28,183 nucleotides of DNA from Promethearchaeota archaeon (GTDB lineage Archaea > Asgardarchaeota > Lokiarchaeia > Sigyniarchaeales > SOKP01). The DNA lies in NCBI GenBank assembly GCA_004524535.1, contig SDNY01000042.1, positions 1 to 28,183 on the forward strand, in the 5' to 3' direction. Shown piece by piece: positions 1 through 23,716 of this stretch. The position numbers and the translations under genes are program-made. Below the pieces are notes generated by a model. It did not search any database. It had not been told where the DNA came from and was given only the letters and a program-made list of their open reading frames with translations. The first letter of the stretch is position 1; each line of letters opens with the position of its first letter.

Positions 1-515
1 ATTTTAACTTTATCCCGTAATCCTGCCTCTTTTATTGCCTTCACTACATTTTCCATCTCTACCATAGTAATTGTAAGAAGGGCACTTAATCCAACTGCGA
101 AAGGATTATATTCTTTTATTGCCTCTACAAATTTTTCTGGAGGAATATCCGTTCCAAGATCTATCACTTCAAATCCCGCACCTTTCAGCACAGATTCTAC
201 TAAGGTCTTACCAATGTCATGTAGATCACCCTTGACTGTACCAAGGACGAATTTTCCCAAGGATTTCGTATTTTTTCCTTTGGCAAGTAATGGTTTTAGA
301 ATTTCCATCCCTTCTTCCATTGCTCTTGAGGCGATCAACAAATCTGGAATAAAATATTCATTTTCTTGAAATAATTCTCCTACTTTATCCATAGCTGGAA
401 TCAATGCTTTGTTTAAAATATCTTCTGCGCTGTTACCTTCCTCTAAAAGTGTATTTATTCTTTCTACAGTATCTTTATTATATCCTTCTACTACTAATTC
501 TTTCAATTTTTCCAT
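1..515 (-). CDS. Corrinoid (B12-binding) methyltransferase protein, MtaC/MttC-like; 3' end truncated by the window edge
   Basis: Not in the ORF track; translated by hand from ATG at 515: MEKLKELVVEGYNKDTVERINTLLEEG...ALIPAMDKVGELFQENEYFIPDLLIASRAM...GTVKGDLHDIGKTLV...GFEVIDLG...VGLSALLT. It has the cap domain, the DxHxxG cobalt-ligand motif and the SxL motif. AGGAG Shine-Dalgarno (SD) at about 526-530. Confidence 0.95.
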   Translation of the reverse strand, partial: MEKLKELVVEGYNKDTVERINTLLEEGNSAEDILNKALIPAMDKVGELFQENEYFIPDLLIASRAMEEGMEILKPLLAKGKNTKSLGKFVLGTVKGDLHDIGKTLVESVLKGAGFEVIDLGTDIPPEKFVEAIKEYNPFAVGLSALLTITMVEMENVVKAIKEAGLRDKVK

Positions 516-529
516 TATATAATCTCTCC

Positions 530-2035
530 TTATTCAATATTTATAGGATATTTACCATATTTTTTGACAGCTTCAACCATCGCCTTAAAATTTTCAGGTT
601 TAACATAGTCAGGTATAGAATTTGAGGCTGCACATCCATAGCCCCCCCCTGAAGCAAGTTCTTTAATTCTTTTTTTCACAGCAGCGTCTACTTCTTCCAC
701 AGTACCTCTAGTCAAAGTATAATCAAGGTCAATATTCCCAAAAATACAAAATCTATTACCATATTCTTTCTTAACAGCTACAATATCCATTGCCTGAGGC
801 TCAATTGGGTGAATTCCCTTGACACCACAATCTGCTAAATCATTAAAAACAGCCATAAAATTGCCATCGGAATGAAAAATAAACGGAATGCCTGCATTTT
901 CAAGTATCTTTCCAATTTGTTTATACCATGGAAAGACATATTTTCTATAAATTTTAGGATTAACAAAACATCCCCCTGTATGAGCCAAATCATCTGACAT
1001 TAATACAGCTCCAAGTTTTGGCACAGTGACTAATCTTTCTGCGATCCTTACATAAGAGGAACCAATCTTCTCGAACAGAGCTTCCACTAATTCTATGTTA
1101 TCATATAATGCATATGAAAAATTTGTCAATCCCATAGATTGTGAAGTATTCCCAAAAACCGCTGCGGGTGAGAGTAATCCTAAAATTTTCATTTTGGGTG
1201 GTAGCAACTCAGCAATTTCATAAAATGACGAGAGATCTACTTCATCCGGGTCAGGCCAAGGGAATTTTTTAAAATCTTGCATTGTTTTAATTCTACCTTC
1301 ACTCTCCGTTATCCAACTCCTCTCATCATCCTTTGCCTGCCTCATTACCCGGGGGGTAAAAAAAGGCGGAACCACAGGTACAAAATCATAGCCAGCTCGG
1401 ATATAAAACTCAACCTCGTCCTCTGCTGTTGTGACCTCCCTTCCTAAAAACCATTCTTTAATAGGAATTTCGATTTCTGCTTCAAATAAAGGAACCCGAT
1501 CTGGTATTTCTCGTCTGATAGCAGTCTCCAATCGAGAAAAATCAGGATCCAAAGGAACACCCCCCAAAGTTCCTTCAATAATTATAGGTTTTTGTGATGC
1601 TTTTTCCTTCTTTTTCGAAAATATTTTCCTTATTTTTTGCTTAAAAGATAATTTTTCAGGTTCACCAATAAAATCTTTTACCTTGAGGGATACTCCTCCA
1701 TATTCATGCGTAATAAAACTAATTTTTATCACATGTTTCCCATCTGAAAGAGGATTTCCTTTTATGCGAATATCAAGTTTTGAATTTTTGGCAAATTCTA
1801 CTAATTCTTTTAAAGGCTCCTCTGAAATTTTAAAGGTTCGCCCTCCGAGTTCTAATTGTACATTCTCAGAAGGAATTGAAATTTCTCCATCAATAGTAAT
1901 TTTAAGCTGACTCATTCCACTTATCTTTAATGGTGTCATAGTATTCATAAAACAAAAAGAAAAACCATTTTCTGTATTTTGTAAACTTCCCCTATCATAA
2001 ACTTTATTCACTAAAAATCCCGGAATATAAACCAT
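530..2035 (-). CDS. UroD/MtaA-superfamily (putative corrinoid-dependent methyltransferase) protein with an extra ~125-aa N-terminal beta-rich domain
   Basis: The C-terminal ~340 aa carry PDRVP, SDDLA, YRKYVFPWYK, FHSDGN, FGNID and GGGY..SNSIP..V.PENF, typical of UroD-like TIM barrels. It lies next to the corrinoid gene and has a GAGGTGA SD upstream of the ATG. Confidence 0.85.
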   Translation of the reverse strand: MVYIPGFLVNKVYDRGSLQNTENGFSFCFMNTMTPLKISGMSQLKITIDGEISIPSENVQLELGGRTFKISEEPLKELVEFAKNSKLDIRIKGNPLSDGKHVIKISFITHEYGGVSLKVKDFIGEPEKLSFKQKIRKIFSKKKEKASQKPIIIEGTLGGVPLDPDFSRLETAIRREIPDRVPLFEAEIEIPIKEWFLGREVTTAEDEVEFYIRAGYDFVPVVPPFFTPRVMRQAKDDERSWITESEGRIKTMQDFKKFPWPDPDEVDLSSFYEIAELLPPKMKILGLLSPAAVFGNTSQSMGLTNFSYALYDNIELVEALFEKIGSSYVRIAERLVTVPKLGAVLMSDDLAHTGGCFVNPKIYRKYVFPWYKQIGKILENAGIPFIFHSDGNFMAVFNDLADCGVKGIHPIEPQAMDIVAVKKEYGNRFCIFGNIDLDYTLTRGTVEEVDAAVKKRIKELASGGGYGCAASNSIPDYVKPENFKAMVEAVKKYGKYPINIE

Positions 2036-2050
2036 AATTTCACCTCTTTT

Positions 2051-4606
2051 TTATTCATGTTCTGTCCTTTGAATAATTTCATTTTGGATTTCAATACCTA
2101 ACTCACAGAAATATGCAGAATATCCTCCAACTTTAACAATTAAATCTCCATACATGCCTGGATTGTCTTGTGCCTCTTTAAGCATTTCAGCAGAAACGAC
2201 AGTGGGTTGTACTTGTTGTCCACCTAATTCGAAATACGCGCGGATTAAAGCAATCCATTTTTCACGATTTTCTAATTTTTCTCCTATGGCTGTGGGATGG
2301 AACTTTACATTTACAGCACATCCTAATACATCCTCATAATCTATAGCAGAAACGGAGTGGAATACGTTGGTTATACCGCATTTTTCTACATTATACGGAT
2401 TACAGCTTGCAGCATAAGGAGTAGCAGCTTTACGACCATCTGGAGTTGCAATAGAGATTCGACCATCAATAGTATGTGTTGTCATACTGATAAGATACGG
2501 GACAAATGATCCGCCCCTATAAGAAGTATAATTATATGTGTCTTCGAATAGCTGTTTAGTAACATAATGACATAAATCATCGACTTCTTTATAACCATTT
2601 CCCCATTTACCATCTAATCTTAGAATTTTATAATAGAGGTCTTCATACCCGTTATAATTCATATCTATTGCTTTCATAAGTTCCTTAAAAGTCGTTATCT
2701 TTTCATCGAAGATGAGTTTCTTGATAACATATAAAGAATCGGTTAAATTAGCTATACTATTGATGAAGGAGATACCAGATAAATCATATTTTCCCCCCCC
2801 TTGAGTAACATCTTTCCTGCTCTCGATACATCCTTCTATAAAAGCAGAGATATATGGAGCTGGTAAATATTGAGCATATAATTGATCGCGAAGATTTGAG
2901 ACATCAACAAGCATTTTCACCTGTTTATTTGCTTGAGTTAAAAAGGCTTCCAAAAATTCTTCAAATGTAGAGAAAGAATCTGGTTCACCGGTTTTAAGCC
3001 CTAAGTTTTTTATAAGGCCCATAAAAGTTTGAGAATCACCATTACGCAATGTGAGGTCTAACAACCTACAGAGAAGTAATGCATTAGCGCTCATACCACC
3101 CGTTTTACCGGGACAGAGCATTTCTACACATCCCATTACAGCATAATCGCAGGCATCCTCTTCAGAAAAGCCTCTTTTTTTCATCGACTCTACATTAACA
3201 TCATCATTAAAAAACGAGAGATTTGAACTCCCTTGATATAAAACATCTGCTGCTTTCAACAATACCTCATCGGGCGTGGCTTCATTAACTCTCAGAGATA
3301 TATTTGTTACTGCCCTTGAATTATTAGCAGCCTCGAGAAAAAGATAGGTTAATTCATTAGTTGCGTCTGTTCCATCTGGTTTAAGTCCCCCTAAGGTTAT
3401 TGGTGTAGAACCAAGAAATCTATGATAAAAATTTGAAAGTAAGTTTGTTTCGGGACGAATGTTTTGTGACATAACTTTTAAAAGAAGTTCTTCAAGTATT
3501 TCTCTTGCTTTATCATGTGTAATTATCCCCTGTTCAAGATCTTTCTTATAATAAGGATAAAAAATCTGATCCATGCGACCAAAACAATGTAAATTTACAG
3601 GATGTGCTAACTCAACAGCGGTTTTTAATGTCCATCCTGATTGTACCGCCTCATAAAAAGTTTCTGCTGGATATAAGGGAACTTTTTTACAATTTTCTAA
3701 CATTTTTTTTAAGATCGCTTTCTGTGTAGAATCGGTTGCTTTGTTATATTCAGATTCAACCTTTTCAGCTAGTCTTTCTGCAAAAATAATGACTCCTTCT
3801 ATTGCGATCTTAAGGGATTTTAATGTATTTAAATCCTCTGAGGATAATGACGAGCTATTTTCAATTTCATCCTCAATCTCCTCCTTCATTTTAAGCAAAC
3901 CTTTTTTAATTGGCGTTTTATAATCTATTATGACATGGCCTTGATAAGTAGATATTGTAGCACACATACTAATCATTTTAGTTTGCCTAGAGGTATTTGC
4001 GGGCATAGCATTAGAAAATTCTACCATACTTCCTGAAAGAATACCTGCTTTCGGAATTTCATCCTCTAGTATGTTTACTAGCGTTTTCCCATTCCATTTC
4101 GGAAGGAGTTTTTTTAATAGAATTTTCTTATCTTTCTTATTAATTTTAAAGGGATTTATTTTTCTTTTTTCCATTGATTTGACTCCAAAATTCAAAGGTT
4201 GGGAGCCTTCTTTGCGGAGTCTCTTATTATTTTGTAGAAAATCATGTAAATATTCTTTTTCACGTAAGAATTTAAAGGATTTCAAGAGTGATCCTATTCT
4301 GAAACGTAAAAGCGTCCACCAACTAAGTTCCGTCTCAAACACTTTATTGAAAACCCCCCGTTCAATATCAATTGGCATCCCCATAAAATCCTCAGTCCAA
4401 TAACCTGCAATCCTATCATCGGGATCTACATAATGAGTCATGTGTTTATATACATTCTTCATTGAAAGTGCAACTCGTATATTCTGAGGGGTTCCATTAT
4501 TCTCAGTTTCGAACCACTTATCACTATAATATTTTGCTCTTTCAATTGAAATTTTTGGCATTTCAGTCTGGTATCTTTTACGCAATCTTTTAATTCTTTC
4601 GCTCAT
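2051..4606 (-). CDS. Glycyl radical enzyme 2 (PFL2/eliminase-like, substrate unknown)
   Basis: 851 aa; Gly loop LIVKVGGYSAYF; Cys loop YAVMGCVEM; also GRMDQ, ATPDGRKA and QGHVIIDY. Confidence 0.95.
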   Translation of the reverse strand: MSERIKRLRKRYQTEMPKISIERAKYYSDKWFETENNGTPQNIRVALSMKNVYKHMTHYVDPDDRIAGYWTEDFMGMPIDIERGVFNKVFETELSWWTLLRFRIGSLLKSFKFLREKEYLHDFLQNNKRLRKEGSQPLNFGVKSMEKRKINPFKINKKDKKILLKKLLPKWNGKTLVNILEDEIPKAGILSGSMVEFSNAMPANTSRQTKMISMCATISTYQGHVIIDYKTPIKKGLLKMKEEIEDEIENSSSLSSEDLNTLKSLKIAIEGVIIFAERLAEKVESEYNKATDSTQKAILKKMLENCKKVPLYPAETFYEAVQSGWTLKTAVELAHPVNLHCFGRMDQIFYPYYKKDLEQGIITHDKAREILEELLLKVMSQNIRPETNLLSNFYHRFLGSTPITLGGLKPDGTDATNELTYLFLEAANNSRAVTNISLRVNEATPDEVLLKAADVLYQGSSNLSFFNDDVNVESMKKRGFSEEDACDYAVMGCVEMLCPGKTGGMSANALLLCRLLDLTLRNGDSQTFMGLIKNLGLKTGEPDSFSTFEEFLEAFLTQANKQVKMLVDVSNLRDQLYAQYLPAPYISAFIEGCIESRKDVTQGGGKYDLSGISFINSIANLTDSLYVIKKLIFDEKITTFKELMKAIDMNYNGYEDLYYKILRLDGKWGNGYKEVDDLCHYVTKQLFEDTYNYTSYRGGSFVPYLISMTTHTIDGRISIATPDGRKAATPYAASCNPYNVEKCGITNVFHSVSAIDYEDVLGCAVNVKFHPTAIGEKLENREKWIALIRAYFELGGQQVQPTVVSAEMLKEAQDNPGMYGDLIVKVGGYSAYFCELGIEIQNEIIQRTEHE

Positions 4607-4635
4607 CTTAATCTTCTAAATTTAAAAACTTATTT

Positions 4636-5436
4636 TTAATACCAATCCCATTTAATATACGAGTAGGGTAAAAATTCCTCTGGATCTACTTCAGTCATTA
4701 TTTCTCCTGGAAACATTTCATTCTCAGATTGTAAATACATCCCCCCTAAAATTTTTACAACTTCTATTTCTCCCCATGGATCGTGGATAGTAGAATTTAA
4801 GGTAACTTCAGCTTCTCCCATCTGCATAGATTTTATTTTAGATTTAGTTACCTGCTTTATTAACCAAGGAGTATAATCAAATCCCTCTTTTGTAGGATGG
4901 GGAAAATGTTTGAAAAGATAATTTACAGTCCCCTTACCTCTTTTTGGAATCATTTGGATCTCAGATACAATTTTAGGGGTTTCTGCATCATTAAACTTAC
5001 CGGTAATTTTCAGTTTAGCTTCAAGATTTTTTACCCCATTGCGTTCAGAAAATCCGTAAATTTCGTTTCCATTTTTCTCAAAATGGACATTTGCAATCTT
5101 TTTGGGGAAGCCAAAAATTTCACGACCTGCGAAGGTTGCTCTATCATCTGTCAGAGGCATCGCAAGGAAGTAATTTCCCAATTCATCCTTATACTTACAC
5201 CTTAAAATTAATGCTGCTTCTGTGTAAGGCAATCCATATGAATGAGAGGGATAGTTAGCTACAAACGCAAGAGCAATTGGGCGCTCAAGCGGTTCTAATG
5301 GGGGTGGAAGCACACGCTCAACAACTTCCTTCTTGGTCTCCCATAATACCCAAACCATTTCTGCCCCTTCAAACACACTTGTTACCATTTCTTCCTTCTT
5401 CTTTTTTATTTCATCTAAATCTCTTTTAAAACTCAT
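4636..5436 (-). CDS. Acetoacetate decarboxylase (ADC)-like superfamily protein
   Basis: AGREIFGFPKKIA Schiff-base Lys motif, LPPPLEP and PYTEA. GAGG SD upstream. Confidence 0.9.
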   Translation of the reverse strand: MSFKRDLDEIKKKKEEMVTSVFEGAEMVWVLWETKKEVVERVLPPPLEPLERPIALAFVANYPSHSYGLPYTEAALILRCKYKDELGNYFLAMPLTDDRATFAGREIFGFPKKIANVHFEKNGNEIYGFSERNGVKNLEAKLKITGKFNDAETPKIVSEIQMIPKRGKGTVNYLFKHFPHPTKEGFDYTPWLIKQVTKSKIKSMQMGEAEVTLNSTIHDPWGEIEVVKILGGMYLQSENEMFPGEIMTEVDPEEFLPYSYIKWDWY

Positions 5437-5454
5437 TTTATATCCTCTTTTATT

Positions 5455-6663
5455 TTATTCTATAGCTTGATTTAATAATTCTAATAGATCTATCATTTTC
5501 ATATTCGAACCTAAAGCTTTAATCGCATCGCTTAAATTTCTATAGCAGAATGGGCAAATACTCACGAGATTATCCACCCCTGTTTCTTCGGCTTCTTTTA
5601 TTCTGCTTTTAGCCATTTCTAATGATAACTCTGGAAATCCCTTTTTTAGACCGCCGCCTGCACCGCAACATTTTGCATGTTGTTTTATAGTTTTCATCTC
5701 CACAATCTCGGCTATTTTACTCAAGAGTTCCCTTGGTTCTTCATATAATCCGGTATGCCGCCCGGTGTGGCAAGGATCATGATAGGTAACCTTGAGCCCT
5801 AGATCATTTAATTGGATATTGTTTTCAGCTAAATATGTCCTTAAAAATTCAACAGTATGAAGTATTTCGATATCCAAATCCTTAAATAACTCGGCATAAT
5901 CCACTTTTAGGGTTCGATAACAGCCAGCGCAGCTAGTGATAATCTTTTTGGCACCGCTCTTTTTAAATAGTTCAAGATTACGTTCGGCCACAAAATTAAA
6001 AGCTTTTCGATCTCCGGTTCGCATGGCGACACTACCGCAGCATACTTCATTTTCTCCGAATATAGAAAAATCTATTCCTAATTTTTTGAGGACTTTAGCT
6101 GTATCTATCGCTACTGCTCGAATATTAGGAGTCAAGGCAGCCGTACATCCTACGAAATAAAGAAGATCTGCCTGCTCTTTACTTGCATCTTTTATTTTAA
6201 AGTCTAATTCTTCTATCCAATTTTCTTTTTCTTTATTATCCTTGTTATAAGGATTTAGTAGTTTGACCATCGCTTTATTCATAGAATCATGAGATTCCAA
6301 TCCGCAACCTGCATCTACGAGCTCAGCCCGAAGTGCTTCATAAAGAGCAACATTATTCAAATTATAATTACATGCCTCAGCACATGCATTACATGTGGGA
6401 CATTGATATATAACTTCAGCCAATCGCTTACTAAGGTTCAAATTTTTTTCCCAAATTGATCGAATGATTTGCATCTTTCCCCGTCCGAAGAAGGGCTCAA
6501 ATCCAGTAGAGTGTTCTTTCGCCACGCAGACTCCCACAACTTGAGGATCCGCCGTTATATCTACAGTCTCGCGGCAATCCCCGCAGCTAATACACGAATT
6601 AATTATATCTTTTAATTTTGCTAAATGTTTGTATTTTATATCAGGGTTAATATCAATAGTAAT
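5455..6663 (-). CDS. Fe-S oxidoreductase with 2x[4Fe-4S] and two CCG domains (GlcF/HdrD-like); start extended to a probable ATT codon
   Basis: The ORF track starts at GTG 6537, but the frame is open 42 codons further upstream and encodes the first cluster motif CISCGDC. The second motif is CPTCNACAEAC. CCG domains: GC..CCG..CAGC and HDPC..CCGAGGG..CPFC. GAGGAGG lies 7 nt upstream of ATT at 6663. The family call is firm; the start is inferred. Confidence 0.85.
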   Translation of the reverse strand: MTIDINPDIKYKHLAKLKDIINSCISCGDCRETVDITADPQVVGVCVAKEHSTGFEPFFGRGKMQIIRSIWEKNLNLSKRLAEVIYQCPTCNACAEACNYNLNNVALYEALRAELVDAGCGLESHDSMNKAMVKLLNPYNKDNKEKENWIEELDFKIKDASKEQADLLYFVGCTAALTPNIRAVAIDTAKVLKKLGIDFSIFGENEVCCGSVAMRTGDRKAFNFVAERNLELFKKSGAKKIITSCAGCYRTLKVDYAELFKDLDIEILHTVEFLRTYLAENNIQLNDLGLKVTYHDPCHTGRHTGLYEEPRELLSKIAEIVEMKTIKQHAKCCGAGGGLKKGFPELSLEMAKSRIKEAEETGVDNLVSICPFCYRNLSDAIKALGSNMKMIDLLELLNQAIE

Positions 6664-6665
6664 TT

Positions 6666-8198
6666 TTATTCCTCCTCATTTATAATATATTTTGAAATAT
6701 CATCTTCGTAGCTATACATATGGAACTTTTTTGGGCTAAGAATGAAATTAGGATCCACAAGCTTTTTCATATCTTTAAAGAATTTCATAAATTCTGTGCT
6801 ATAAGCTCCTGACTCCACGATAGATTGGGAAATAACCTCACCAAGCCAATAATGTACGCCACCATATTGTGCTTGATGTCGAACTCTCTTATGCCACATC
6901 TTCATGGCTACTTCTCGTTGATCACTTTTTATGTTATCTGCATTAAAACCTCCAGCAAAAACACAATGACCATTTGATAGAAGATGGATGGAAGTGGCAA
7001 ATAATGAAAAACTCTGATCAGGGAATTCGCTTCTATGAGCGTTATCAAAATCCGTACTAAGTTTCTTTTTTTCGGCCATGGTTGATATAGGAAGTTTATG
7101 ACAAGTGGTACAAGAAAGTTTTGGAGGTGCGAGGGACACGAATTTGTTAAAATATGTATAAGAAAATTTTAAATTGAATCTCCAATCTCTCGCTTCTTCT
7201 GCGGTTAAATCAATTTCGGTCCATTCAAAAGGTCTTGCGAAATCTTTCATAATTTTTCCCAGTTTTTCTTCATAAATCTCCAAAATACGCTCATCAGTAG
7301 CTTCTAATATGAACAATATAACAGGTCCCTTTAATTTCGCTCTCTTCGGAGGTCTCTTTTTAGCTTGTGATGCTAAAATCTGCACCACCGTACGGGGAGT
7401 GACATATAAATCTTGCATACTGTCTCGTAATTCGGTCTGGCATTTATACATTAGTTCAAATAATCTATTATAATCATCATTCAGGAGCATATAGTTTCTT
7501 CGGATCTTATAGGGAGGGTTCGGATATAATTTCAAGGATGCTTTCGTTTTAATTCCCATTGTCCCTACATCCCCCATAAAGAGCCCTGTAAAGTCTGGAG
7601 AGATTCCATATCTACAGAATGGTTTGGCATATTTATTTGCAATTGAACCCGTGCGAATAATAGTCCCGTTTGGGTCTCCTAATACCACCTCAACCCCAAG
7701 GCAATTATCTGTAATTAAACCATATTTGGTTGACCCAAACCCTGCGGTGCTATTGGATAATCCCCCGCCGATAGTTGCTGAAAAACCGCTTCCGGGACCG
7801 ATAATCCCAATAGATAAATCTTTTTTTAATAATTCTGAATTCAGTTCTCCCCAAGTTATCCCTGTTTCAATAAAACAATAGAAATCTTTTTCATTTATTT
7901 CTATTATTTTGTTCATCCGGGTTAAGTCCATTAAAATTCCCCCTTGAGTAGCGGACCCTCCTACTAAATCTGCACCGCCACCTCTGGGAACTATCGATAT
8001 TTTATATTTATTTGCTATCTTAACTATTTCGGACACTTCTTCGGTACTTTCGGGACGAACTATCATATCTGCCCACCTATCAGGAAATGCAGGATCTACA
8101 TTTCGAGAATAAGCAGCTTTCATGAAATCTTCGTCTGTAATATAATCAGAGCCAACTATATCTTCAATGTCTTTATATATATTATCAACTTTGGCCAT
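6666..8198 (-). CDS. FAD-linked oxidoreductase, GlcD/VAO (PCMH-type) family
   Basis: VRPESTEEVSEIVK, PRGGGADLVGG, ATIGG, KYG, GDVGTMGIKT and C-terminal KKLVDPNFILSP. I prefer ATG at 8198 (MAKVDN, GAGG upstream) to TTG 8222, which overlaps the upstream gene. Confidence 0.9.
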   Translation of the reverse strand: MAKVDNIYKDIEDIVGSDYITDEDFMKAAYSRNVDPAFPDRWADMIVRPESTEEVSEIVKIANKYKISIVPRGGGADLVGGSATQGGILMDLTRMNKIIEINEKDFYCFIETGITWGELNSELLKKDLSIGIIGPGSGFSATIGGGLSNSTAGFGSTKYGLITDNCLGVEVVLGDPNGTIIRTGSIANKYAKPFCRYGISPDFTGLFMGDVGTMGIKTKASLKLYPNPPYKIRRNYMLLNDDYNRLFELMYKCQTELRDSMQDLYVTPRTVVQILASQAKKRPPKRAKLKGPVILFILEATDERILEIYEEKLGKIMKDFARPFEWTEIDLTAEEARDWRFNLKFSYTYFNKFVSLAPPKLSCTTCHKLPISTMAEKKKLSTDFDNAHRSEFPDQSFSLFATSIHLLSNGHCVFAGGFNADNIKSDQREVAMKMWHKRVRHQAQYGGVHYWLGEVISQSIVESGAYSTEFMKFFKDMKKLVDPNFILSPKKFHMYSYEDDISKYIINEEE

Positions 8199-8212
8199 TT
8201 TTATAAAACCTC

Positions 8213-10765
8213 TTAAAAACAATTACAAAATTCAATTCTATCTATCAAATCATCTTGGATTGACCTGCCAAGCCTTGTAAAATAGGCTGAATATCCAGAA
8301 ACCCGTACAATTAAATCGGGATAATTTTCAGGATGTAGTTGAGCATCCTTTAATGTGTCAGTTCCCATATTATTGACTTGAAGATGCATTCCTCCTTTTT
8401 CAAAGTAGGTTTCAAGCAAATTCTTAAAGGTTTCGAGGCCCTTATCATTATCTGTTAAGAAGGGTGGGAACCTCATATTCAGAGAATCACCATATCCTAT
8501 ATCCGTATGGTCAATTTTAGCTACTGAATTTAATGCTGCGGTAGGACCATTCAGTTCAGCACCATTACAAGGAGATATTGCGTTTGAAAGTGGCTCACCC
8601 GCTTTTCTTCCATTCGGAGTTGCGGGTTCTAATGCTCCTTCATACACATTTAGACCATAAGAACTAAAACTTGGTTTGAAAAAATCTCCCATTGACAAAT
8701 TTTTACTCTTTACCATTGCACAAAACTTTTTTACTAATTCAACGGCGATTTTATCTGTGTAATCATCATCATTTCCAAATTTTGGGCCATTCATTAAGAT
8801 TTGCCTTAAAGGTTCGTTATCCTTAAAATTGGTTTGTATAGCATGAAGTAAATCGCTCATAGATATTGTTTTTTCTTCATACACAAACTTCTTTATAGCC
8901 GCTAAAGAATCTACTATCGTTCCTAATCCCCCACCACCAATTGCATGGAACATGAGTTCAGCTCCTCCTTGAGTCATATCCTTAGCATTTTCAATACACC
9001 CATCAATAGTACATGAAATCAATGGATTATGATAATTTTCAGCCCAGACTTGATCTCTCAAATCTCCTGCTTTAGCACATACATCAACAATACGTTCTAA
9101 TTGAGTATAATATGCTTCCATAAACTCGTCAAATGACTTAAACTCTGCGGGATCTCCCGTATCAATATCTTTTTCTCCTCCAAAAAAGGTTGTAATACCC
9201 CGATTAAATGTCAAATCAAGAATAGATGGAAAATATAGTTTAGTACCACCAGTTGCTCCATATGTATCTCCATTACCACTTGGCTCTACACACCCCACTA
9301 TACAGTAGTCTCTTGCAGCTTCCAATGAATATCCATCTTTTTCAAGAGCTTTAATAATAACCTCATCATTAAACATAGCTGGTCCGGCTGTATATTTTTG
9401 TAATTCCAAGACCTTTTTTATATATTCTTCAGGACTATTTTTTGAAATTCGGAAAGAGGATTGAGTAGCAAGCTTAGTATTTTTTATTGCTTCCATAAAG
9501 ATATAAGTAAGGTCATTGGTCGCATCCTCTCCATTTCGATCTACTCCTCCAAAAGTAATATCTTGAACATCTGAACCTAAATGGTTAAGGCGAGCACCCA
9601 ATACATTAGGCCATATCACTACATTATTGTTAATCTTTATGATAACTTCTTCAAGTAACCTTAAAGCATCATCATCCGTAATTAAATTGGCATTTTTATC
9701 TTTCTTATAATATGGATATAGGATTTGATCCAGACGCCCTGGAGTCATACCACCCATCCCATAACTGATTATTACCACATTATGAGTAAACCAGAAAGAT
9801 TGGACTGCTTCATAAAATGTTTCTGGAGGATTCCAAGGTACCTTTTCACAAATTTTTGCAATTTTCAATAATTCCTTTTTTCTTTCCTCATCAGGTTCAG
9901 TACTCGCTATCTCCTTAGCTAATTTTGTGAAGCGAAGACTAAAATCTCTCATTGCTTCACAAGTCATAATAACACCCTCCAGAAAACCCTTCTCTGAATC
10001 ATTCTTAGCAGTCTTTAATCTGTTTTCAGCTTGTTCTTTTATACCTTTAAATCCAAATTTCACGACATTCTTATATCCTGGAACAATATGACCTTGCATA
10101 TCAATACATCTTCCCCTTCCTTTCACATTATCAGCAGTGCCTACTTTCATTAGTTTAATCCATTTTGGTAGTTGTAAAAAGAATTTAACTTTATCAAAGA
10201 AATTAGCATCTGGGTCTGTCACCAGCTTACCTATGTGTTTCAAACCAAACGCATTTCTTAGTCTTTTTAATCCACCATTGCCTAAAGTAAGTTTGTCCGA
10301 TAAATTATGTTCCTCAAATAATGGAACCTTCAGAGCTCTCACGGATTTATCTTTCCAGTAAGGTATAATCTCTTTATTAAGCCATTTTTTATGCTCTTTC
10401 GTGATATGATATCCATATCTTTTCTTAAGAGTTGGTAAAAGATACTTTATTACCATATTCATGTCTCCTCTCTCAGGGGCAATAGGGGGTGCAATATATT
10501 GGGAGGATCTATTTCCCACCAATAATTCCTCAGGATAAATAGCTATAGTCATATTCTCAAAGGTGTGCTTTAAAGCCTTTGCTGTACGGATTGAAGGATG
10601 TTGCCCTTCTGTTTCTTTATAACTATCCGTATAAAATTTCGCTCGCTCCAAGCAGATCCAATGATCTGCTGTTAATAAGCGATCTTTTTGAATTTGATTT
10701 TGAGGATGAAGACCCGTTGAATTAAATTCTGGAACTTTTACCTGTTTTTTAATCTCAGCTTGCAT
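8213..10765 (-). CDS. Glycyl radical enzyme 1 (PFL2/eliminase-like, substrate unknown)
   Basis: 850 aa; Gly loop LIVRVSGYSAYF; Cys loop YCIVGCVEP; also ELLVGN, PGRLDQ, ATPNGRKAG and QGHIVPGY. Confidence 0.95.
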   Translation of the reverse strand: MQAEIKKQVKVPEFNSTGLHPQNQIQKDRLLTADHWICLERAKFYTDSYKETEGQHPSIRTAKALKHTFENMTIAIYPEELLVGNRSSQYIAPPIAPERGDMNMVIKYLLPTLKKRYGYHITKEHKKWLNKEIIPYWKDKSVRALKVPLFEEHNLSDKLTLGNGGLKRLRNAFGLKHIGKLVTDPDANFFDKVKFFLQLPKWIKLMKVGTADNVKGRGRCIDMQGHIVPGYKNVVKFGFKGIKEQAENRLKTAKNDSEKGFLEGVIMTCEAMRDFSLRFTKLAKEIASTEPDEERKKELLKIAKICEKVPWNPPETFYEAVQSFWFTHNVVIISYGMGGMTPGRLDQILYPYYKKDKNANLITDDDALRLLEEVIIKINNNVVIWPNVLGARLNHLGSDVQDITFGGVDRNGEDATNDLTYIFMEAIKNTKLATQSSFRISKNSPEEYIKKVLELQKYTAGPAMFNDEVIIKALEKDGYSLEAARDYCIVGCVEPSGNGDTYGATGGTKLYFPSILDLTFNRGITTFFGGEKDIDTGDPAEFKSFDEFMEAYYTQLERIVDVCAKAGDLRDQVWAENYHNPLISCTIDGCIENAKDMTQGGAELMFHAIGGGGLGTIVDSLAAIKKFVYEEKTISMSDLLHAIQTNFKDNEPLRQILMNGPKFGNDDDYTDKIAVELVKKFCAMVKSKNLSMGDFFKPSFSSYGLNVYEGALEPATPNGRKAGEPLSNAISPCNGAELNGPTAALNSVAKIDHTDIGYGDSLNMRFPPFLTDNDKGLETFKNLLETYFEKGGMHLQVNNMGTDTLKDAQLHPENYPDLIVRVSGYSAYFTRLGRSIQDDLIDRIEFCNCF

Positions 10766-10846
10766 TTTTTATCACTTTTAGAATTAGAATCTGTTAAAAA
10801 ATTAAACATTTCTAGAAATATCTGTAATATTCTTCAAGTTACACTA

Positions 10847-10879
10847 GTAGAAATAGGTATTTATAGTTTCTACCTATTT
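10847..10879 (-). promoter_or_regulatory. Candidate TATA box of the GRE operon embedded in overlapping inverted repeats (putative operator)
   Basis: The minus strand reads GTAGAAAC-TATAAATA (10873-10858). Inverted pairs: AAATAGGTA 10851-10859 / TACCTATTT 10871-10879, and GTAGAAA 10847-10853 / TTTCTAC 10867-10873. Confidence 0.4.
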
Positions 10880-10996
10880 AAGAGCATTTCTTTAAATATA
10901 AATTGAGTTTTTAAGGCTTTCAAGGTTCAGAAATTAAATTAAACTGTTATGAGAATTAAATTCTTTTTTTATAAATTACATCTCTCACTATAGCTC

Positions 10997-11869
10997 TTAT
11001 CCTTTAAATCCTGCAGCAAGTTGTGCATCTGCAGTCGGCCTTAAAAGAATATAAGTACGACGTGTATATTCAATAAGTTCTTCATGGTCTGAATAAAGTG
11101 CTGAAGCTTCTTTAATGTTTATTCTATTATTTTTTACATCACTTTTAATTAACGTCATAATTAATTCCCGATTATCGACCATTGTCATTCTTATGGGAGG
11201 GGCAAAATTAATTGCTTTAACATCAATATCAGTGGTTGTCTGACCATCGATCAAACCAATCGGTTCAAGTATTTCCTTTCTAAAGTGGATCCTAAATTTG
11301 GGTGGCCCTCCATAAAGAATCTTTATTTTTATACCCTTTTTTATTGCTTTTTGTATATAATCTCGCAAAAGATCCTCTTCATATTTTAATAAATAAGCCA
11401 TAATTAGGATAATTTCATCTTTTGCGCCCTCTAGAATATTTCTCATAAGTTTATGATACTCTTCTAAACCAGTCACGAAATTAAGGGGAGGCACTTCACT
11501 AAATGGGTAATTTATACCGAGTTTGGGTAATAATTTAATTTCATTGAATATGGATTCAGAAGCTTTTTCTAATTCATTTTTACGCGACTTTAATAAATTC
11601 TCAATGGCAATTGCAGGTTCTATAGGTCTTATAAACATAGGGCGAGTATTATCAATCTGAATCAATTTTCTTTCTTCTAATCTTTTAATAATATTATATA
11701 CTTTTGGTTTTGAATATTTTGAAAGCTCTATTAAGTCAGTCGCCTTTATTTTATTATAAATACTTTTTGAATCTTTTCTTGGAATCAAAGATAACTGAAT
11801 TAATAATTTGTAAATATTTTCTTCAGCATCATTAAAATTAAATTCTGAAAAGGGATTATAGATTGACAT
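10997..11869 (-). CDS. TrmB-family transcriptional regulator
   Basis: N-terminal wHTH (EENIYKLLI...SKYSKPKVYNIIKRLEERKLI...RPMFIRPIEP), a coiled coil, then an effector domain (AKDEII...KKGIKIKIL...MVDNRELI). Confidence 0.85.
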   Translation of the reverse strand: MSIYNPFSEFNFNDAEENIYKLLIQLSLIPRKDSKSIYNKIKATDLIELSKYSKPKVYNIIKRLEERKLIQIDNTRPMFIRPIEPAIAIENLLKSRKNELEKASESIFNEIKLLPKLGINYPFSEVPPLNFVTGLEEYHKLMRNILEGAKDEIILIMAYLLKYEEDLLRDYIQKAIKKGIKIKILYGGPPKFRIHFRKEILEPIGLIDGQTTTDIDVKAINFAPPIRMTMVDNRELIMTLIKSDVKNNRINIKEASALYSDHEELIEYTRRTYILLRPTADAQLAAGFKG

Positions 11870-12179
11870 ATTATCGACTCATCTATGTGTAAATTTAAAT
11901 AAACTCTCTTTAAGTAATAAATAGAATACTGAGTATTTTAAGTTAAGTATTTACTTTTTTAACAACTAACTAGTTATAAAAATCCTTAACAACTATCTAA
12001 AATCTCATTTAATGATTAAGCTATCCCATGAATAATTCATTTCTATTTTAATGAAAGCTAGTAACAATGCCAATCCACAGTCTCTTTTCCATGAAAATTC
12101 AGACATATTATTTTTTATTCAATATAAATTTTATATTCTAAGTGGTATATTATAGATTTATTAATAGTAGGAGATAGAA

Positions 12180-12983
12180 ATGATAGAGGAGAAAAGTAAG
12201 ACTAAACCTTTCTTATTCACTCAAAAGGATGCAGTAGCAATAATATCAATAAATAAACCCCCAATGAACACCATGAGTTTGGAGTTCTTCGATAAGTTGG
12301 AAAAACTTGTCCCGAAGCTCTCCGAAGACCGAAATGTTCGCGCCATCGTTATTACGGCAGAAGGGGAGGATAATTTCTCTGTGGGTATGGATCTTAAACA
12401 GATTGCAGGGGTAGGGCGCAACAAAAAGCGTATACAAGACATCTTAGACCAACGCTTACGAGTCCTCAATGCGATTGAGAAAATGAGAAAGCCCGTAGTG
12501 GCCACACTTTTTGGATATTGCCTTGGAGGGGGATTAGAACTACCTCTATCATGCCATTTTCGACTAGCTGCTGAAAAAGGTGCAAAGATCGGTCTACCTG
12601 AGCTGGATCTAGGCACGGTCCCAGCATGGGGAGGAAGCGCACGCTTAACCCGATGTGTGGGGCGATTATACGCACTTGATATGATACTCCGAGCTAAAAA
12701 GATTTCTGGTCCGGAAGCATATCGGATTGGCTTAGTAAACGAAGTTGTCCCAAACGCAGAGCTTAAAGATCGTGCTTTTGAGTTAGCTAAAGAACTTTCT
12801 GATATGCCAATGATGGCCGTTTCTGAAATGCTAAGTTGTATAGTTGAATACGGAGATCAACCATTACAGCAAGGATTATATCAGGAACGCCAAGCAGTAC
12901 TTAAAACTATGGGTACAAAGGACAACATGGAAGGAATGATGGCTTTCCTCCAAAAACGCAAACCAAAATTCAACCAATTCTGA
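12180..12983 (+). CDS. Enoyl-CoA hydratase/isomerase (crotonase) family protein
   Basis: FSVGMDL, KPVVA..GYCLGGGLEL and GLPELDLGTVPAWGG with both catalytic Glu present; C-terminal EGMMAFLQKRKPKF. AGGAG SD. Confidence 0.93.
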   Translation: MIEEKSKTKPFLFTQKDAVAIISINKPPMNTMSLEFFDKLEKLVPKLSEDRNVRAIVITAEGEDNFSVGMDLKQIAGVGRNKKRIQDILDQRLRVLNAIEKMRKPVVATLFGYCLGGGLELPLSCHFRLAAEKGAKIGLPELDLGTVPAWGGSARLTRCVGRLYALDMILRAKKISGPEAYRIGLVNEVVPNAELKDRAFELAKELSDMPMMAVSEMLSCIVEYGDQPLQQGLYQERQAVLKTMGTKDNMEGMMAFLQKRKPKFNQF

Positions 12984-13023
12984 ATTTTAAATTATCCACA
13001 GTTGCTTTATCCTATATTTATAT

Positions 13024-13392
13024 TCATCCTATCAACTTATTCCGCTTCCAATGGAACCAAAGGTCTCCCAGTAATTGGATTGTCCCAGGGATTAACGCAA
13101 TATAAGCACCTAGAATAAGATAAATTATCGAAATCACTGCATACCATATAAGCGCACCTTTTAGAAATGGAGTTATTGGATCCATTTTGAGCATCGGATA
13201 TAAGAGAATGATGCTAAGGATATTTATCCCAATTACTATATACATTGAGACCGTCGCATCAAATCTAAAGCTTTCGGGAAATTTAATATTCCATATTATC
13301 ACTAGGATTATTGCCATAATATTACAGAGGAAAATCCATATCATAAAAATGGGGATAAAGGTTTTTGGAGCATCCTTCCTTTCGAGTGTCAT
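13024..13392 (-). CDS. Hypothetical membrane protein (3-4 transmembrane segments)
   Basis: Hydrophobic segments in the ORF. I prefer ATG at 13392 (MTLERKDAPK) because the 16 upstream codons are AT-rich and intergenic-like. Confidence 0.65.
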   Translation of the reverse strand: MTLERKDAPKTFIPIFMIWIFLCNIMAIILVIIWNIKFPESFRFDATVSMYIVIGINILSIILLYPMLKMDPITPFLKGALIWYAVISIIYLILGAYIALIPGTIQLLGDLWFHWKRNKLIG

Positions 13393-13609
13393 AAAAAAAT
13401 GAATGAATTTTTTATTAAAAAAGATTATATTATAATTCATTAATATAATTTAATAAGTATGATTTCTAGACGAGAGATTAGTAATTTAGATGTTTAAGTT
13501 TATATTTTTCCCACTTTTAATATTATCGTTTTATGCTAAAGATTTTTTAAATTCAAAAAATTTACCTTTTTACCCAAATATTTACAATTAAATATGAGAT
13601 AAATTAAAT

Positions 13610-14668
13610 TTGAAGGGATTCCCTCTATTTGACGATGTTGGTAGCTTTCCACTGCCTGATAATGTGGATATTGAATGGTATCGCAAATTCTATTGGGTAA
13701 CTTACAAAGCAATTATTAATAAAAATGAAAATGATATTTTAGAGCATACAGGAATTAATAATTATTTCATAAATCCGTTTCTTAATTCATTCCAATTAAA
13801 ACTAAAAGCGGGAGTAGAAATAATCAATTACCCTCAGCATTTAGATATGTACAATCAATTCTTAAAACCAATTTCAGAATACGAAACTGCCCCAGGTTTA
13901 ATAAATCCTCAAAATGCTTTTATACCCGAGATATTTATCCTTAAGAATTTTGCAAAAAATAATTATGAAGAAACGGGACATCCTTTAGATGTTAAAATTT
14001 GTGTTACAGGCCCATTAGAATTATATATTAAACAGCATAATTTTACTGTGTACTTAGATTTGGCTTTAAATTTTGCAAGATCAGTAAACTCCTTTATAAA
14101 AAGTGCGATAGTCAATAATAAATATATAAAAACATCTGTCGTTGCGATTGATGAGCCTTCCTTCGGTTATGTTGATATGTTTAATATAACCAATGATGAT
14201 ATCATCAATATCTTTGATAAATCTTTAGAAGGTATTGATACCACAAATCAAATTCATCTTCATACTTTAAATAAAGCTATCCTTCCAATGCAGACAAAAA
14301 AGATTGATGTGTTAACATGTGAATACGCTTCAGATCCGAGCAATAAAATTCCGAAAAAAGAATTGGATCAGTACGATAAATTTATTCGAGTGGGCATCAC
14401 TAGAACCAATATTGATAACATTATCGCTGAGAAATTAGATATGGGAAGTTCTTTAGATGATTTCAAAACTATTTCGGGAAAATTAAGCTTAATTGATTCT
14501 AAAGAAAGGATTAGAAAAAATTTATTAACTGCGATTGAATTATACGGCGAACGGCTAAAATTCATAGGACCCGATTGCGGTTTAGGAGGTTGGGAACTTC
14601 CACAAATCGCTTTTGAATTACTCCGTCGAACAAGTGGAGTCATAGAACAAATCAAAAAAGAAATGTAA
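13610..14668 (+). CDS. Folate-independent 'core' methionine synthase (MetE catalytic barrel only), MesC-like
   Basis: FDDVGSFPLP, AGVEIINYPQ..DM..QFL, CVTGP, IDEPS, Zn-site QIHLH...CEY...GPDCGLG; single barrel of 352 aa; TTG start. Confidence 0.85.
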   Translation: MKGFPLFDDVGSFPLPDNVDIEWYRKFYWVTYKAIINKNENDILEHTGINNYFINPFLNSFQLKLKAGVEIINYPQHLDMYNQFLKPISEYETAPGLINPQNAFIPEIFILKNFAKNNYEETGHPLDVKICVTGPLELYIKQHNFTVYLDLALNFARSVNSFIKSAIVNNKYIKTSVVAIDEPSFGYVDMFNITNDDIINIFDKSLEGIDTTNQIHLHTLNKAILPMQTKKIDVLTCEYASDPSNKIPKKELDQYDKFIRVGITRTNIDNIIAEKLDMGSSLDDFKTISGKLSLIDSKERIRKNLLTAIELYGERLKFIGPDCGLGGWELPQIAFELLRRTSGVIEQIKKEM

Positions 14669-14737
14669 AAAAATGCAAAAGAAATTTACATAATTGCAAT
14701 TATTTACTAAAGTCTCTTTTATTATAAAAACAATAGA

Positions 14738-14799
14738 TTTAAATAGTCTTTTCACTATTTTTTAAGTGTAAAGGACTTATTGACAAAAAGTAATTTACA
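14738..14799 (+). promoter_or_regulatory. Candidate hsp20-cdc48 promoter with operator-like inverted repeat
   Basis: TTTAAATA at 14738-14745. TGTAAA-N7-TTGACA at 14767-14785 lies at the expected transcription start, with an extra half-site TTTACA at 14794-14799. Confidence 0.4.
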
Positions 14800-14823
14800 T
14801 GTCCCAAAATAAAGGTGGTAAAT

Positions 14824-15441: not shown

Positions 15442-15506
15442 ATCTTAATTAATAAATAGTATTATATTAATTGAAAAAAAATAAAAATTAATATACTGGG
15501 AAAAAG

Positions 15507-17729: not shown

Positions 17730-17780
17730 TTAAAATTTTAAATACAAATAAAAATATTAAATAAAAGTGTGAGTTTTTAT

Positions 17781-18605: not shown

Positions 18606-18632
18606 TTTAGTAAAAATTAAAACAAAAATCGG

Positions 18633-20870: not shown

Positions 20871-21022
20871 ATTGATTTATTTGAGTTGATTTTTTAGAGA
20901 TCTATTTATAAATTCTTAATAGCAATTATTTTTTTATTTTAACTTTTAGTCATTAAAATTAATTACCAAGAACAATTTTTATTACTTAGTAGAAAGTGAA
21001 AATATGAAATGGTCGATTAAAA

Positions 21023-22093: not shown

Positions 22094-22105
22094 AAAGAAA
22101 ATAAT

Positions 22106-23705: not shown

Positions 23706-23716
23706 AATCATGAAAA

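Follow-up and report, generated by a model that had tools for sequence, protein, structure and literature searches.

Glycyl radical enzymes (GREs) perform chemically hard anaerobic reactions, and the assignment of new families has opened pathways for choline, hydroxyproline and sulfonates. Here, a gene cluster of an Asgard archaeon was analyzed that encodes two GREs together with a predicted corrinoid-dependent methyltransferase. The cluster lies on the Promethearchaeota contig SDNY01000042.1 (C118), whose entire 28,183 nt were analyzed (hereafter the window) and which belongs to a 3.66-Mb, 99%-complete metagenome-assembled genome (MAG; genome G000). A list of open reading frames (ORFs) combined with Pfam/NCBIfam assignment delimited eight minus-strand ORFs at positions 3-11869, in the order TrmB, GRE1, flavin adenine dinucleotide (FAD) oxidase, CCG iron-sulfur protein, acetoacetate-decarboxylase-like (ADC-fold) enzyme, GRE2, URO-D-type methyltransferase fusion and corrinoid protein. 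GRE-based anaerobic catabolism is a known kind of system; what appears to be new here, judged from sequence, is the pairing of two uncharacterised GRE families with an unprecedented corrinoid methyltransferase partner.

The first gene (10997-11869, minus strand) encodes a TrmB-family helix-turn-helix regulator of 290 amino acids (aa; Pfam TrmB 30.4 bits, cut-off 25.6). It is followed by an AT-rich spacer of 231 nt (10766-10996), likely a promoter/operator region, and by the seven enzyme and corrinoid genes, whose ORFs and domains are as described in an earlier, sequence-only reading of this DNA. That reading had put the gaps between the genes at about 2-29 nt. The short gaps are indeed of 14-29 nt: 14 nt between GRE1 and the FAD gene if the latter begins at ATG 8198, 18 nt between CCG and ADC, 29 nt between ADC and GRE2, 15 nt between GRE2 and URO-D, and 14 nt between URO-D and the corrinoid gene. 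The distance between TrmB and GRE1 is larger, at 231 nt, and two boundaries had to be revised, as the FAD start was moved to ATG 8198 and an apparent 128-nt gap before the CCG gene is coding. Gaps of 14-29 nt would imply a single transcript. A search for RNA runs covering window 2000-11900 found none. The Shine-Dalgarno sites noticed earlier were recovered as GAGG-type motifs 5' of the ADC, URO-D and corrinoid genes. A scan of the window for sigma-70 promoters and terminators, a model not applicable to archaea, performed no better than on shuffled sequences.

Two divergent glycyl radical enzymes

GRE1 (850 aa; 8213-10765, minus strand; Pfam PFL-like 570 bits, Gly_radical 103 bits) and GRE2 (851 aa; 2051-4606, minus strand; 489 and 74.5 bits) share 32% identity, and both score far above the cut-offs of the two domains that define the superfamily. 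A motif search located the Cys loop of GRE1, GCVEPSGNGDTYGATGG, at residues 491-507 (9245-9295, minus strand) and its Gly loop, RVSGYSAYF, at residues 821-829 (8279-8305, minus strand). The corresponding loops of GRE2 are GCVEMLCPGKTGGMSAN at residues 492-508 (3083-3133, minus strand) and KVGGYSAYF at residues 825-833 (2108-2134, minus strand). The Cys loop reads GCVE in both enzymes, so that the Gly loop and C-V-E motifs quoted previously are present letter for letter.

Every NCBIfam equivalog score of both GREs is about half its cut-off or less. The scores of GRE1/GRE2 were 492/371 for CutC (cut-off 1050), 550/418 for HypD (1100), 527/419 for HpsG (1000), 471/371 for HpfG (1000), 362/304 for IAD (1100), 300/260 for HPAD (1150) and 121/89 for PFL (994). 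The subfamily model TIGR01774 (PFL2/glycerol dehydratase, cut-off 678) was not reached by either, at 565 for GRE1 and 474 for GRE2. The best PDB matches were the B12-independent glycerol dehydratase 1r8w for GRE1 (490 bits) and the Roseburia inulinivorans propanediol dehydratase 5i2a for GRE2 (345 bits).

To place the two enzymes, a maximum-likelihood tree of 69 rows was computed (LG+G4, quick search, SH-aLRT support only). It was based on 121 GRE ORFs from the fetched loci, reduced to 63 representatives at 70% identity, from which five non-GRE ORFs were removed; E. coli PflB, PflD and YbiW, the R. inulinivorans enzyme and seven GREs of the window's genome were added. The labels HpsG (three rows) and HypD (one row) were assigned by NCBIfam equivalog passes, and families without a reference in the tree (CutC, IslA, HPAD, IAD and the succinate synthases) were judged by NCBIfam and PDB scores. 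GRE1 fell in a clade of 5 rows and GRE2 in one of 17 rows (SH-aLRT 100 each). Together with paralog lineages they form a 26-row clade (SH-aLRT 98), and all labelled references, including propanediol dehydratase, PflD, YbiW, HpsG and HypD, are found in a separate clade of 33 rows (SH-aLRT 94). By these scores and this tree, both GREs are divergent members placed outside every characterised family compared, in agreement with the divergence noted before. Both families are large: among the matches listed, each has at least 120 cluster representatives at 55% identity or more; they come from sediments and from Promethearchaeota, Helarchaeota, Hermodarchaeota, Hodarchaeota, uncultured bacteria and several bacterial phyla, with generic annotations.

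Like glycerol and propanediol dehydratase, both enzymes have the GRE fold, the Gly loop and G-C-V-E. The Cys-x-Glu loop and the His equivalent to H166 of propanediol dehydratase (PD) are found in GRE1, GRE2 and all aligned orthologs, and in PD numbering H166, C438, E440 and the radical Gly are retained in both. Unlike these relatives, to which identity is only about 30-35%, they lack the residues that presumably make the pocket polar: PD H283, S284 and W450-H451-D452, and Y339 and Y640 of glycerol dehydratase (GDH), are all replaced. At PD H283-S284, W450-H451-D452, GDH Y339 and Y640, GRE1 has G-G, A-T-G, V and S, and GRE2 has N-L, M-gap-S, S and I. The replacements N-L, M-S, S, I and M are identical among GRE2 orthologs from Asgard archaea and bacteria, which suggests that the orthologs of both domains probably act on one shared, less polar substrate. 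The gene context differs as well, since the Asgard cluster contains no microcompartment or adjacent activase genes, and its partners are an ADC-fold enzyme, a flavoprotein and a corrinoid methyltransferase. In a microcompartment preprint (PMC12747264), GREs appear only in the reference list.

A sister subclade of GRE2 in Asgard archaea carries C-V-D in place of C-V-E (L037, L040, L045, L047, L051, L054). Its neighbours encode an activase, sugar-type MFS (MFS_2) transporters, KDPG aldolase, FGGY kinase and 2-hydroxyacid dehydrogenase, as well as GFO/IDH/MocA oxidoreductases or aldehyde:ferredoxin oxidoreductase.

A predicted methyltransferase fusion followed by a corrinoid protein

The METHYLTRANSFERASE module consists of a URO-D-type methyltransferase fusion and a corrinoid protein. 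The fusion (501 aa; 530-2035, minus strand; Pfam URO-D 88.6 bits, HMG-CoA_red_N 57.8 bits) combines an N-terminal all-beta CGDB/HMG-CoA_red_N-like domain, a long basic linker and a URO-D-fold domain of the MtaA/CmuA/CdmB type. Across Asgard archaea and bacteria, the family has a mean column identity of 74%, with FHSDG, IHPIEP, SDDL and ASNS.P.YV.P.N invariant. Its best curated or solved matches are MtaA/CmuA-type methyltransferases and CdmB, not HemE (PDB 9rui, CdmB, 37 bits; 4ay7, 31 bits); on the MtaA/CmuA family model TIGR01463 it reaches 54 against a cut-off of 235.

The corrinoid gene (3-515, minus strand; Pfam B12-binding_2 81 bits, B12-binding 77 bits) runs off the contig end, leaving the first 171 of about 209 residues. 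The protein has a cap and a Rossmann domain, with the DxHxxG motif present as DLHDIG; on TIGR02370 it scores 163 against 215, a value obtained with the truncated sequence, and its L030 ortholog is complete at 209 aa. A corrinoid protein directly follows the fusion in all eight archaeal-type loci (window, C167, L030/L055, L056, L057, L222, L223, L230). A URO-D fold adjacent or fused to a corrinoid protein, the arrangement of methyltransferase I (MTI) components, is thus found here.

The nearest relatives of the fusion that lack the N-domain (40-42% identity) are single URO-D+B12-binding polypeptides of Desulfobacterota. Their neighbours are a TRAP transporter and a methyltransferase of the Pterin_bind type; in L073, the gene stands directly after FTHFS, FolD and MTHFR. 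The corrinoid gene in eight of eight archaeal-type loci, the B12-fused relatives and the methyltransferases among the best matches are the lines of evidence that make the fusion a corrinoid-dependent methyltransferase, an activity predicted from these comparisons. In L030, a gene for MTHFR/MetV lies 6 kb downstream of the cluster.

The fold corresponds to that of three-component MTI systems with a URO-D-fold protein beside a DxHxxG corrinoid protein (the O-demethylases MtvB/OdmB/MtoB, CdmBCA, and CmuA). According to PMC13222342, this methyltransferase fold serves methoxylated aromatics and haloalkanes, and zinc is not needed in CdmB or the Moorella O-demethylase; CdmB (9rui), the closest solved match, lacks the zinc site just as the fusion does. 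The fusion differs from these systems in its low score to CdmB, its extra N-terminal beta domain and its long basic linker, and the Asgard cluster contains no methyltransferase II (MTII) or reductive activator and is coupled to a GRE.

Most relatives of the N-domain (201 representatives at E <= 0.001) are free-standing proteins about 120 aa long, and the domain itself has a weak Pfam match to the small subunit of a C-glycoside deglycosidase, the partner of a TIM barrel. Since its relatives stand alone like a subunit that partners a TIM barrel, docking of the N-domain onto GRE2 is less likely. An AlphaFold2 model of the fusion from a 14-row alignment was poor (mean predicted local distance difference test score, pLDDT, 59.9) and resolved only an all-beta N-domain at about residues 13-123 and an unstructured linker at 125-190.

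The URO-D+B12-binding proteins of Desulfobacterota/Syntrophaceae MAGs are 590-630 aa long (L070, L072, L073, also L074 and L084). By gene content, loci of the L070/L072/L073 type look like a complete demethylation system for an anionic methyl donor.

ADC-fold, FAD and CCG proteins

The ADC-fold enzyme (266 aa; 4636-5436, minus strand; Pfam ADC 169.5 bits) contains FPKK at 5098-5109. This Lys-Lys pair and a nearby Glu (YTE) are kept in 13 of 13 aligned rows, within the motif GR[ED]I.GFPKK, so that the ADC domain, the Schiff-base Lys and the adjacent Glu are all in place. Arg29 of clostridial ADC, which we take to bind the substrate carboxylate, is Ala in this protein and variable across its relatives. 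The score on PRK02265 is 64.9 against a cut-off of 150, and solved acetoacetate decarboxylases (3bh2, 3bgt, 3c8w) share the domain, the Lys-Lys and the neighbouring Glu with it and match at only 26-46 bits over the N-terminal half. With Lys-Lys and Glu conserved and Arg29 replaced by Ala, the protein is likely a Schiff-base enzyme other than a plain acetoacetate decarboxylase. Look-ups in the ESM Atlas gave generic ADC and URO-D clusters only.

The FAD-linked oxidase/dehydrogenase of the VAO/GlcD superfamily (6666-8222, minus strand; Pfam FAD_binding_4 131 bits) most likely starts at ATG 8198, based on an alignment of paralogs, and not at a TTG overlapping GRE1. Its best PDB hits, p-cresol methylhydroxylase (9h40, 104 bits) and D-lactate dehydrogenases (96 bits), are confined to the FAD domain, and its cap domain matches no solved structure. 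The C-terminal motifs GGxHYWxGE and DPN..LSP are GlcD-like. A phenolate-binding Tyr-Arg pair is a feature of VAO/PCMH enzymes; none was found in the C-terminal part of the protein.

The CCG-domain iron-sulfur protein (5455-6663, minus strand; Pfam CCG 129.5 bits) is of the GlcF/HdrD/TfrB type and resembles TfrB, GlcF and HdrB (TfrB model 239 bits, cut-off 385). Its best PDB match is 9ojn (131 bits), a 1042-residue chain deposited as an iron-sulfur-binding reductase. The ORF begins at GTG 6537, with homologous coding sequence up to 6663; the 128 nt 5' of this start are in-frame coding and homologous to the N-terminal CxxCxxC of the C3 and C61 paralogs. An FAD_binding_4 protein followed by an Fe-S/CCG protein, along with the two GlcD-like motifs, recalls GlcD/GlcF- and YdiJ-type 2-hydroxy-acid dehydrogenases. 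Unlike in those enzymes, curated cut-offs are missed widely, the cap domain is without a solved match and the CCG partner is optional.

Conservation of the cluster and paralogous modules

The full order TrmB-GRE1-FAD-(CCG)-ADC-GRE2-fusion-corrinoid recurs in two other contigs, so that the neighbourhood proved to be conserved when compared across genomes. On a 184-kb contig of a Promethearchaeota MAG (L030), identities are 88% for TrmB, 97% for GRE1, 78% for FAD, 94% for ADC, 96% for GRE2, 85% for the fusion and 96% for the corrinoid protein; the CCG gene is missing, and a second URO-D/corrinoid pair follows the cluster. The other is a 22.9-kb metagenome contig (L222), with 82% for TrmB, 70% for GRE1, 82% for FAD, 77% for CCG, 89% for ADC, 80% for GRE2, 84% for the fusion and 78% for the corrinoid protein. 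DNA contigs of four sequencing runs differed from the window by strain variation only.

The partners of GRE2 were then counted in 31 loci with an ortholog at 57% identity or more, pooled from the fetched loci after removal of same-contig duplicates; partners were accepted within 6 kb and GRE1 within 9 kb. Many of these loci are close kin, and the counts are descriptive, not statistics. An ADC homolog was found in 19, the full-length fusion in 10 (plus one cut by a contig end), an activase in 9, the corrinoid gene and an FAD ortholog in 6 each, a GRE1 ortholog in 3 and CCG in 2. Nine of the 12 loci without ADC have less than 3.3 kb of flank on at least one side. The fusion stands beside GRE2 in the window, C167, L030, L222, L223, L230, L058, L059, L061 and L062. 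Conversely, a GRE2 ortholog is present in 11 of 13 fusion-carrying genomes, the exceptions being G302 (best match 36%) and G307 (none at E 1e-100). FAD orthologs flank GRE2 in the same-genus genomes G207 and G279, both without GRE1 and the fusion.

Bacterial GRE2 loci take two forms. One comprises an SDR, an HpnA/3-beta-HSD-like dehydrogenase, TetR, GRE2, ADC and an acyl-CoA-dehydrogenase-like protein; the other comprises the fusion, GRE2, an activase, an HpnA-SDR fusion, ADC and an acyl-CoA-dehydrogenase-like protein. The uncharacterised TetR-GRE-ADC-acyl-CoA-dehydrogenase cassette shares with the window a GRE2 ortholog (58-63% identity) with identical pocket columns and an ADC-fold gene directly after it. 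TetR, the SDR and the two dehydrogenase-type proteins are its own features, and no corrinoid protein is encoded nearby; the Asgard form has TrmB, FAD/CCG and GRE1 instead.

Aldehyde:ferredoxin oxidoreductases recur beside relatives (L037, L211, L152), in L211 adjoining FAD-ADC, which is consistent with an aldehyde product. The Desulfobacterales locus L152 (6447-14863) carries a relative of the GRE1-paralog lineage (44%) in the series GntR, V4R protein, GRE, acyl-CoA ligase, enoyl-CoA hydratase and aldehyde:ferredoxin oxidoreductase. Such an arrangement is typically found around GREs with an aldehyde product that undergoes oxidation and CoA activation.

The G+C content per kb on the cluster side (window 1-10000) is 0.33-0.38, compared with 0.27-0.33 in most of 11000-28183, where the exceptions are 0.39 at 12-13 kb and 0.36 at 16-17 kb. 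Together with bacterial orthologs of the fusion and GRE2 that are 58-69% identical, this composition suggests gene exchange between sediment bacteria and Asgard archaea.

No activase was found in the 28,183-nt window, where the sole match was a polyferredoxin with 23 bits to the Fe-S insert of the model. Elsewhere in the genome, four TIGR02494 activase matches exceed the cut-off (C167, C132, C62 and, as a fusion, C53), so that candidate cognate activases exist genome-wide, for a total of 8-9 GRE genes. The C167 activase sits within a paralogous GRE2 module (C167:10563-18575, locus L031). Besides it, the module encodes a GRE2 paralog (60%), versions of the fusion (76%) and of the corrinoid protein (70%), a 'variant radical SAM' protein of 454 aa (376 bits to NF045502) and, at its end, an exporter of the TauE/SafE family. 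At another locus (C3:1-5842, L033), the FAD protein has three paralogs in tandem (65-67% identity to the window protein); behind them lies a CCG paralog (74%) truncated at the contig end. URO-D and corrinoid paralogs are numerous in the genome.

Activase-GRE fusions of about 1,100 aa (C53:10630-13908; L169, L171, L177, L178, L181, L202) form a tight clade (SH-aLRT 100), which is common to Asgard archaea, Hadarchaeota, Smithella and other Deltaproteobacteria-labelled MAGs. The polyferredoxin ORF mentioned above (262 aa, open frame to 361 aa) lies in window 21305-22639 and is not an activase; neither is a fragment-like ORF of 177 aa on the opposite strand of the same interval, which has a DAPG-hydrolase (PhlG) domain (56 bits).

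Proposed pathway

We tentatively favor, with slightly less than even confidence, the interpretation of the cluster as a TrmB-headed catabolic operon of an Asgard archaeon for a methylated, hydroxylated organic compound, assembled from three modules. From gene content, motifs, clade placement, conservation and co-occurrence as observed above, we infer the individual chemical steps, their order and the kind of substrate. The latter is probably methylated, hydroxylated and rather non-polar, and would be broken down without oxygen.

Module A, the fusion with its corrinoid protein, would strip from the substrate, or from a precursor of it, an activated methyl group such as that of an aryl-methyl or thio-methyl ether. 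From methyl-Co(III), the methyl group would pass to a pterin methyltransferase encoded elsewhere and enter the methyl branch of the Wood-Ljungdahl pathway; two MtrH proteins and one Pterin_bind protein encoded outside the cluster are candidate acceptors. GRE2, activated in trans by an activase encoded elsewhere in the genome, would catalyze a ketyl-radical 1,2-elimination of a C-O or other C-X bond by means of the thiyl Cys, the Glu at +2 and the conserved His. Compared with glycerol or propanediol dehydratase, its pocket is far less polar, and its product would be a carbonyl compound. In module B, the ADC-fold enzyme would form a Schiff base with this product on its conserved Lys and promote decarboxylation, retro-aldol cleavage or beta-elimination, and the FAD oxidase would contribute an oxidation step with or without its CCG iron-sulfur partner. 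GRE1 may be a second eliminase-type GRE, recruited in this lineage only, for a related substrate or a later intermediate.

Candidate substrates include 2-(methylthio)ethanol or sulfonium alcohols, sugars or inositols with O-methyl groups, ethers of alkylglycerol, polyols of the hopanoid or steroid type, and 3,4-dihydroxy acids; hopanoids and steroids are included because HpnA/SdmB-like dehydrogenases occur in the bacterial cassettes. The sequence-only reading had envisaged two eliminations, oxidation of a hydroxyl and Schiff-base cleavage. This chemistry stays conjectural, with the Schiff-base Lys of the ADC-fold enzyme kept and its Arg not.

In literature covered mostly at abstract level, we found no paper that connects a GRE with an ADC-fold enzyme or with this kind of corrinoid methyltransferase cluster, and no described pathway with this gene set, in line with what had been stated before. 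The association of a GRE with a corrinoid methyltransferase points to a possible unrecognised use of methylated organic matter in anoxic sediments. It would indicate a source of carbon and methyl groups for Asgard archaea, a group whose physiology has so far mostly been inferred. The cluster also offers a defined, testable set of genes: one each for a GRE, an activase, a methyltransferase and a corrinoid protein.

Evidence against a single pathway and alternative explanations

Several observations weigh against the proposed operon function. At the level of the proteins, the URO-D match of the fusion is partial and below NCBIfam cut-offs, and the zinc motif HxC...C of MtaA is not found, as H-S-D and Asn replace the Cys ligands; the ADC-fold enzyme has the Ala in place of Arg29 described above. 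None of the nine bacterial fusion loci has a corrinoid gene within 8 kb. The start codon of the CCG gene is lost, being ATG in the C3 paralog and ATT in the window, which leaves the first CxxCxxC outside the canonical ORF. The gene occurs in L222 and in the X2 and X8 runs; it is missing from L030 and from an X4 contig in which 5451 is joined to 6806. Judged by this pattern, CCG is dispensable in the window lineage.

The modules also differ in distribution. Among 301 sampled Asgard species genomes, 21 have the GRE2 family (E <= 1e-150, with the top three candidates per genome scored), 44 have ADC relatives (E <= 1e-40), and only the window's own genome has the fusion. In other Asgard MAGs, FAD-CCG-ADC is flanked by an MFS transporter and an enoyl-CoA hydratase, with no GRE within 7 kb (L209, L210, L213). 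The C167 module is without ADC, FAD and GRE1. In one Helarchaeota MAG and two MAGs of Myxococcota, the GRE1 ortholog is solitary or paired with its own activase, unlinked to the other genes, and in the loci compared GRE1 is tied to other genes only in three close contigs of the window lineage. The fusion is found in none of five bacterial genomes with GRE2-ADC and is also absent from the same-genus genomes G207 and G279. It thus looks like an add-on that depends on GRE2, with GRE2 apparently able to work without it. The single pathway put forward from the sequence alone was not sustained in that form: by the occurrence of its parts, the gene set is a mosaic of three modules, not an indivisible ancient pathway, and seems to have been assembled in a lineage-specific manner.

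This mosaic leaves room for an explanation in which TrmB-GRE1, FAD-CCG-ADC and GRE2-methyltransferase-corrinoid serve different substrates and are merely clustered, perhaps co-regulated. Each module occurs on its own elsewhere, GRE1 is linked in 3 of the 31 GRE2-ortholog loci, and identity between the window and L222 is 70% for GRE1, against 77-89% for its neighbours. The 8-9 GREs, the three tandem FAD paralogs and the many URO-D/corrinoid paralogs point to frequent shuffling. We regard such a catabolic island as possible but unlikely, considering that ADC homologs adjoin GRE2 orthologs in two domains of life even though the ADC groups are 36-44% identical, that FAD orthologs flank GRE2 in G207 and G279 where GRE1 and the fusion are lacking, and that the 14-29 nt gaps imply a single transcript. 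A different order of events, with lyase chemistry before methyl capture, which the sequence-only reading had raised as an alternative, seems distinctly less probable. GRE2 would then act on a 2-hydroxyalkyl-X compound in the manner of choline trimethylamine-lyase or isethionate lyase, and the small methylated leaving group (such as methanethiol or dimethyl sulfide) would be demethylated in an MtsA-like reaction. Thioethers are known methyl donors of URO-D-fold methyltransferases. The adjacency and co-occurrence of GRE2 and the fusion would fit this order equally well, Met, Leu and Ile abound in the GRE2 pocket, and the paralogous C167 module ends with a TauE/SafE-family exporter. These methyltransferases take donors with good leaving groups; haloalkanes and methoxylated aromatics are named in PMC13222342. 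The five bacterial GRE2-ADC genomes without the fusion indicate, however, that methyl harvesting is not always needed; the lyase-first order also leaves the ADC-fold and flavoprotein partners without a role, and GRE2 scores only 371 against 1050 on the CutC model.

Two further explanations concern the identity of single enzymes. That the fusion acts on the GRE2 substrate as a cofactor-free decarboxylase or some other TIM-barrel enzyme and is not a methyltransferase, with the adjacent Asgard corrinoid gene serving another system, would account for the bacterial fusion loci devoid of a corrinoid gene, the missing zinc ligands and an N-domain that resembles the small subunit of a TIM-barrel C-glycoside deglycosidase and has mostly stand-alone relatives. 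We consider it very unlikely in view of the corrinoid protein after the fusion in every archaeal-type locus, the 40-42% identical relatives fused to B12-binding domains inside pterin-methyltransferase/C1 clusters, and the best NCBIfam and PDB matches, which are methyltransferases and not HemE. Hydrocarbon activation by fumarate addition, with the GREs as alkyl-/benzylsuccinate synthases (Ass/Bss), is the least credible of the readings considered. According to PMC8163825, Hermodarchaeota GREs with 29-33% identity to AssA/BssA were called Ass/Bss from a single loop Cys, and the Hermodarchaeota protein P0138 is 69% identical to GRE1. GRE1, however, matches 1r8w with 490 bits and the succinate synthases TutD and MasD with 242 and 258 bits; GRE2 matches diol dehydratases with 345 and 339 bits and TutD and MasD with 175 and 187 bits, a comparison based on scores, the tree having no succinate-synthase reference. 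The dehydratase Glu and His are kept in both GREs, and the cluster contains neither small beta/gamma subunit genes nor a bbs/ass-type beta-oxidation set. These data argue against reading such Asgard GREs as hydrocarbon-activating succinate synthases, and the Ass/Bss label published for related Asgard GREs is not supported by the sequence comparison.

A more specific and decidedly speculative extension, to which we give little credence, is that GRE2 and the fusion provide sediment bacteria and Asgard archaea alike with an anaerobic route for methoxylated phenylpropanoid units derived from lignin. URO-D/corrinoid O-demethylation would feed methyl groups to the Wood-Ljungdahl pathway, and GRE2 would be an aryl-glycol/aryl-glycerol dehydratase or a beta-aryl-ether lyase whose ketyl radical expels hydroxyl or phenoxide. 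The PCMH/VAO-like flavoprotein would oxidise the side chain of the resulting aryl ketone, and the ADC-fold enzyme would cleave this side chain. The non-polar GRE2 pocket, the methyltransferase family of methoxylated aromatics, the p-cresol methylhydroxylase match of the FAD protein and the sediment origin are compatible with this route and no more than that. With its GlcD-like motifs and no Tyr-Arg pair, the FAD protein itself lends nothing to an aromatic substrate. If true, the route would provide the first oxygen-independent radical enzyme for the main lignin ether bond.

Neighbouring genes

Divergent from TrmB, an enoyl-CoA hydratase gene is located at window 12180-12983 (plus strand). A crotonase gene is also the convergent flank of the FAD-CCG-ADC unit in L209, L210 and L213, and is not found beside the cluster in L030; the window's enoyl-CoA hydratase may belong functionally to this unit. 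At a distance of 1.7 kb from the cluster, window 13610-14668 (plus strand) encodes a core-MetE-like methionine synthase of 352 aa (NF004712 244 bits, cut-off 387). Some core MetE enzymes accept the methyl group from methylcobalamin, and a link of the MetE-like protein to the corrinoid module is conceivable.

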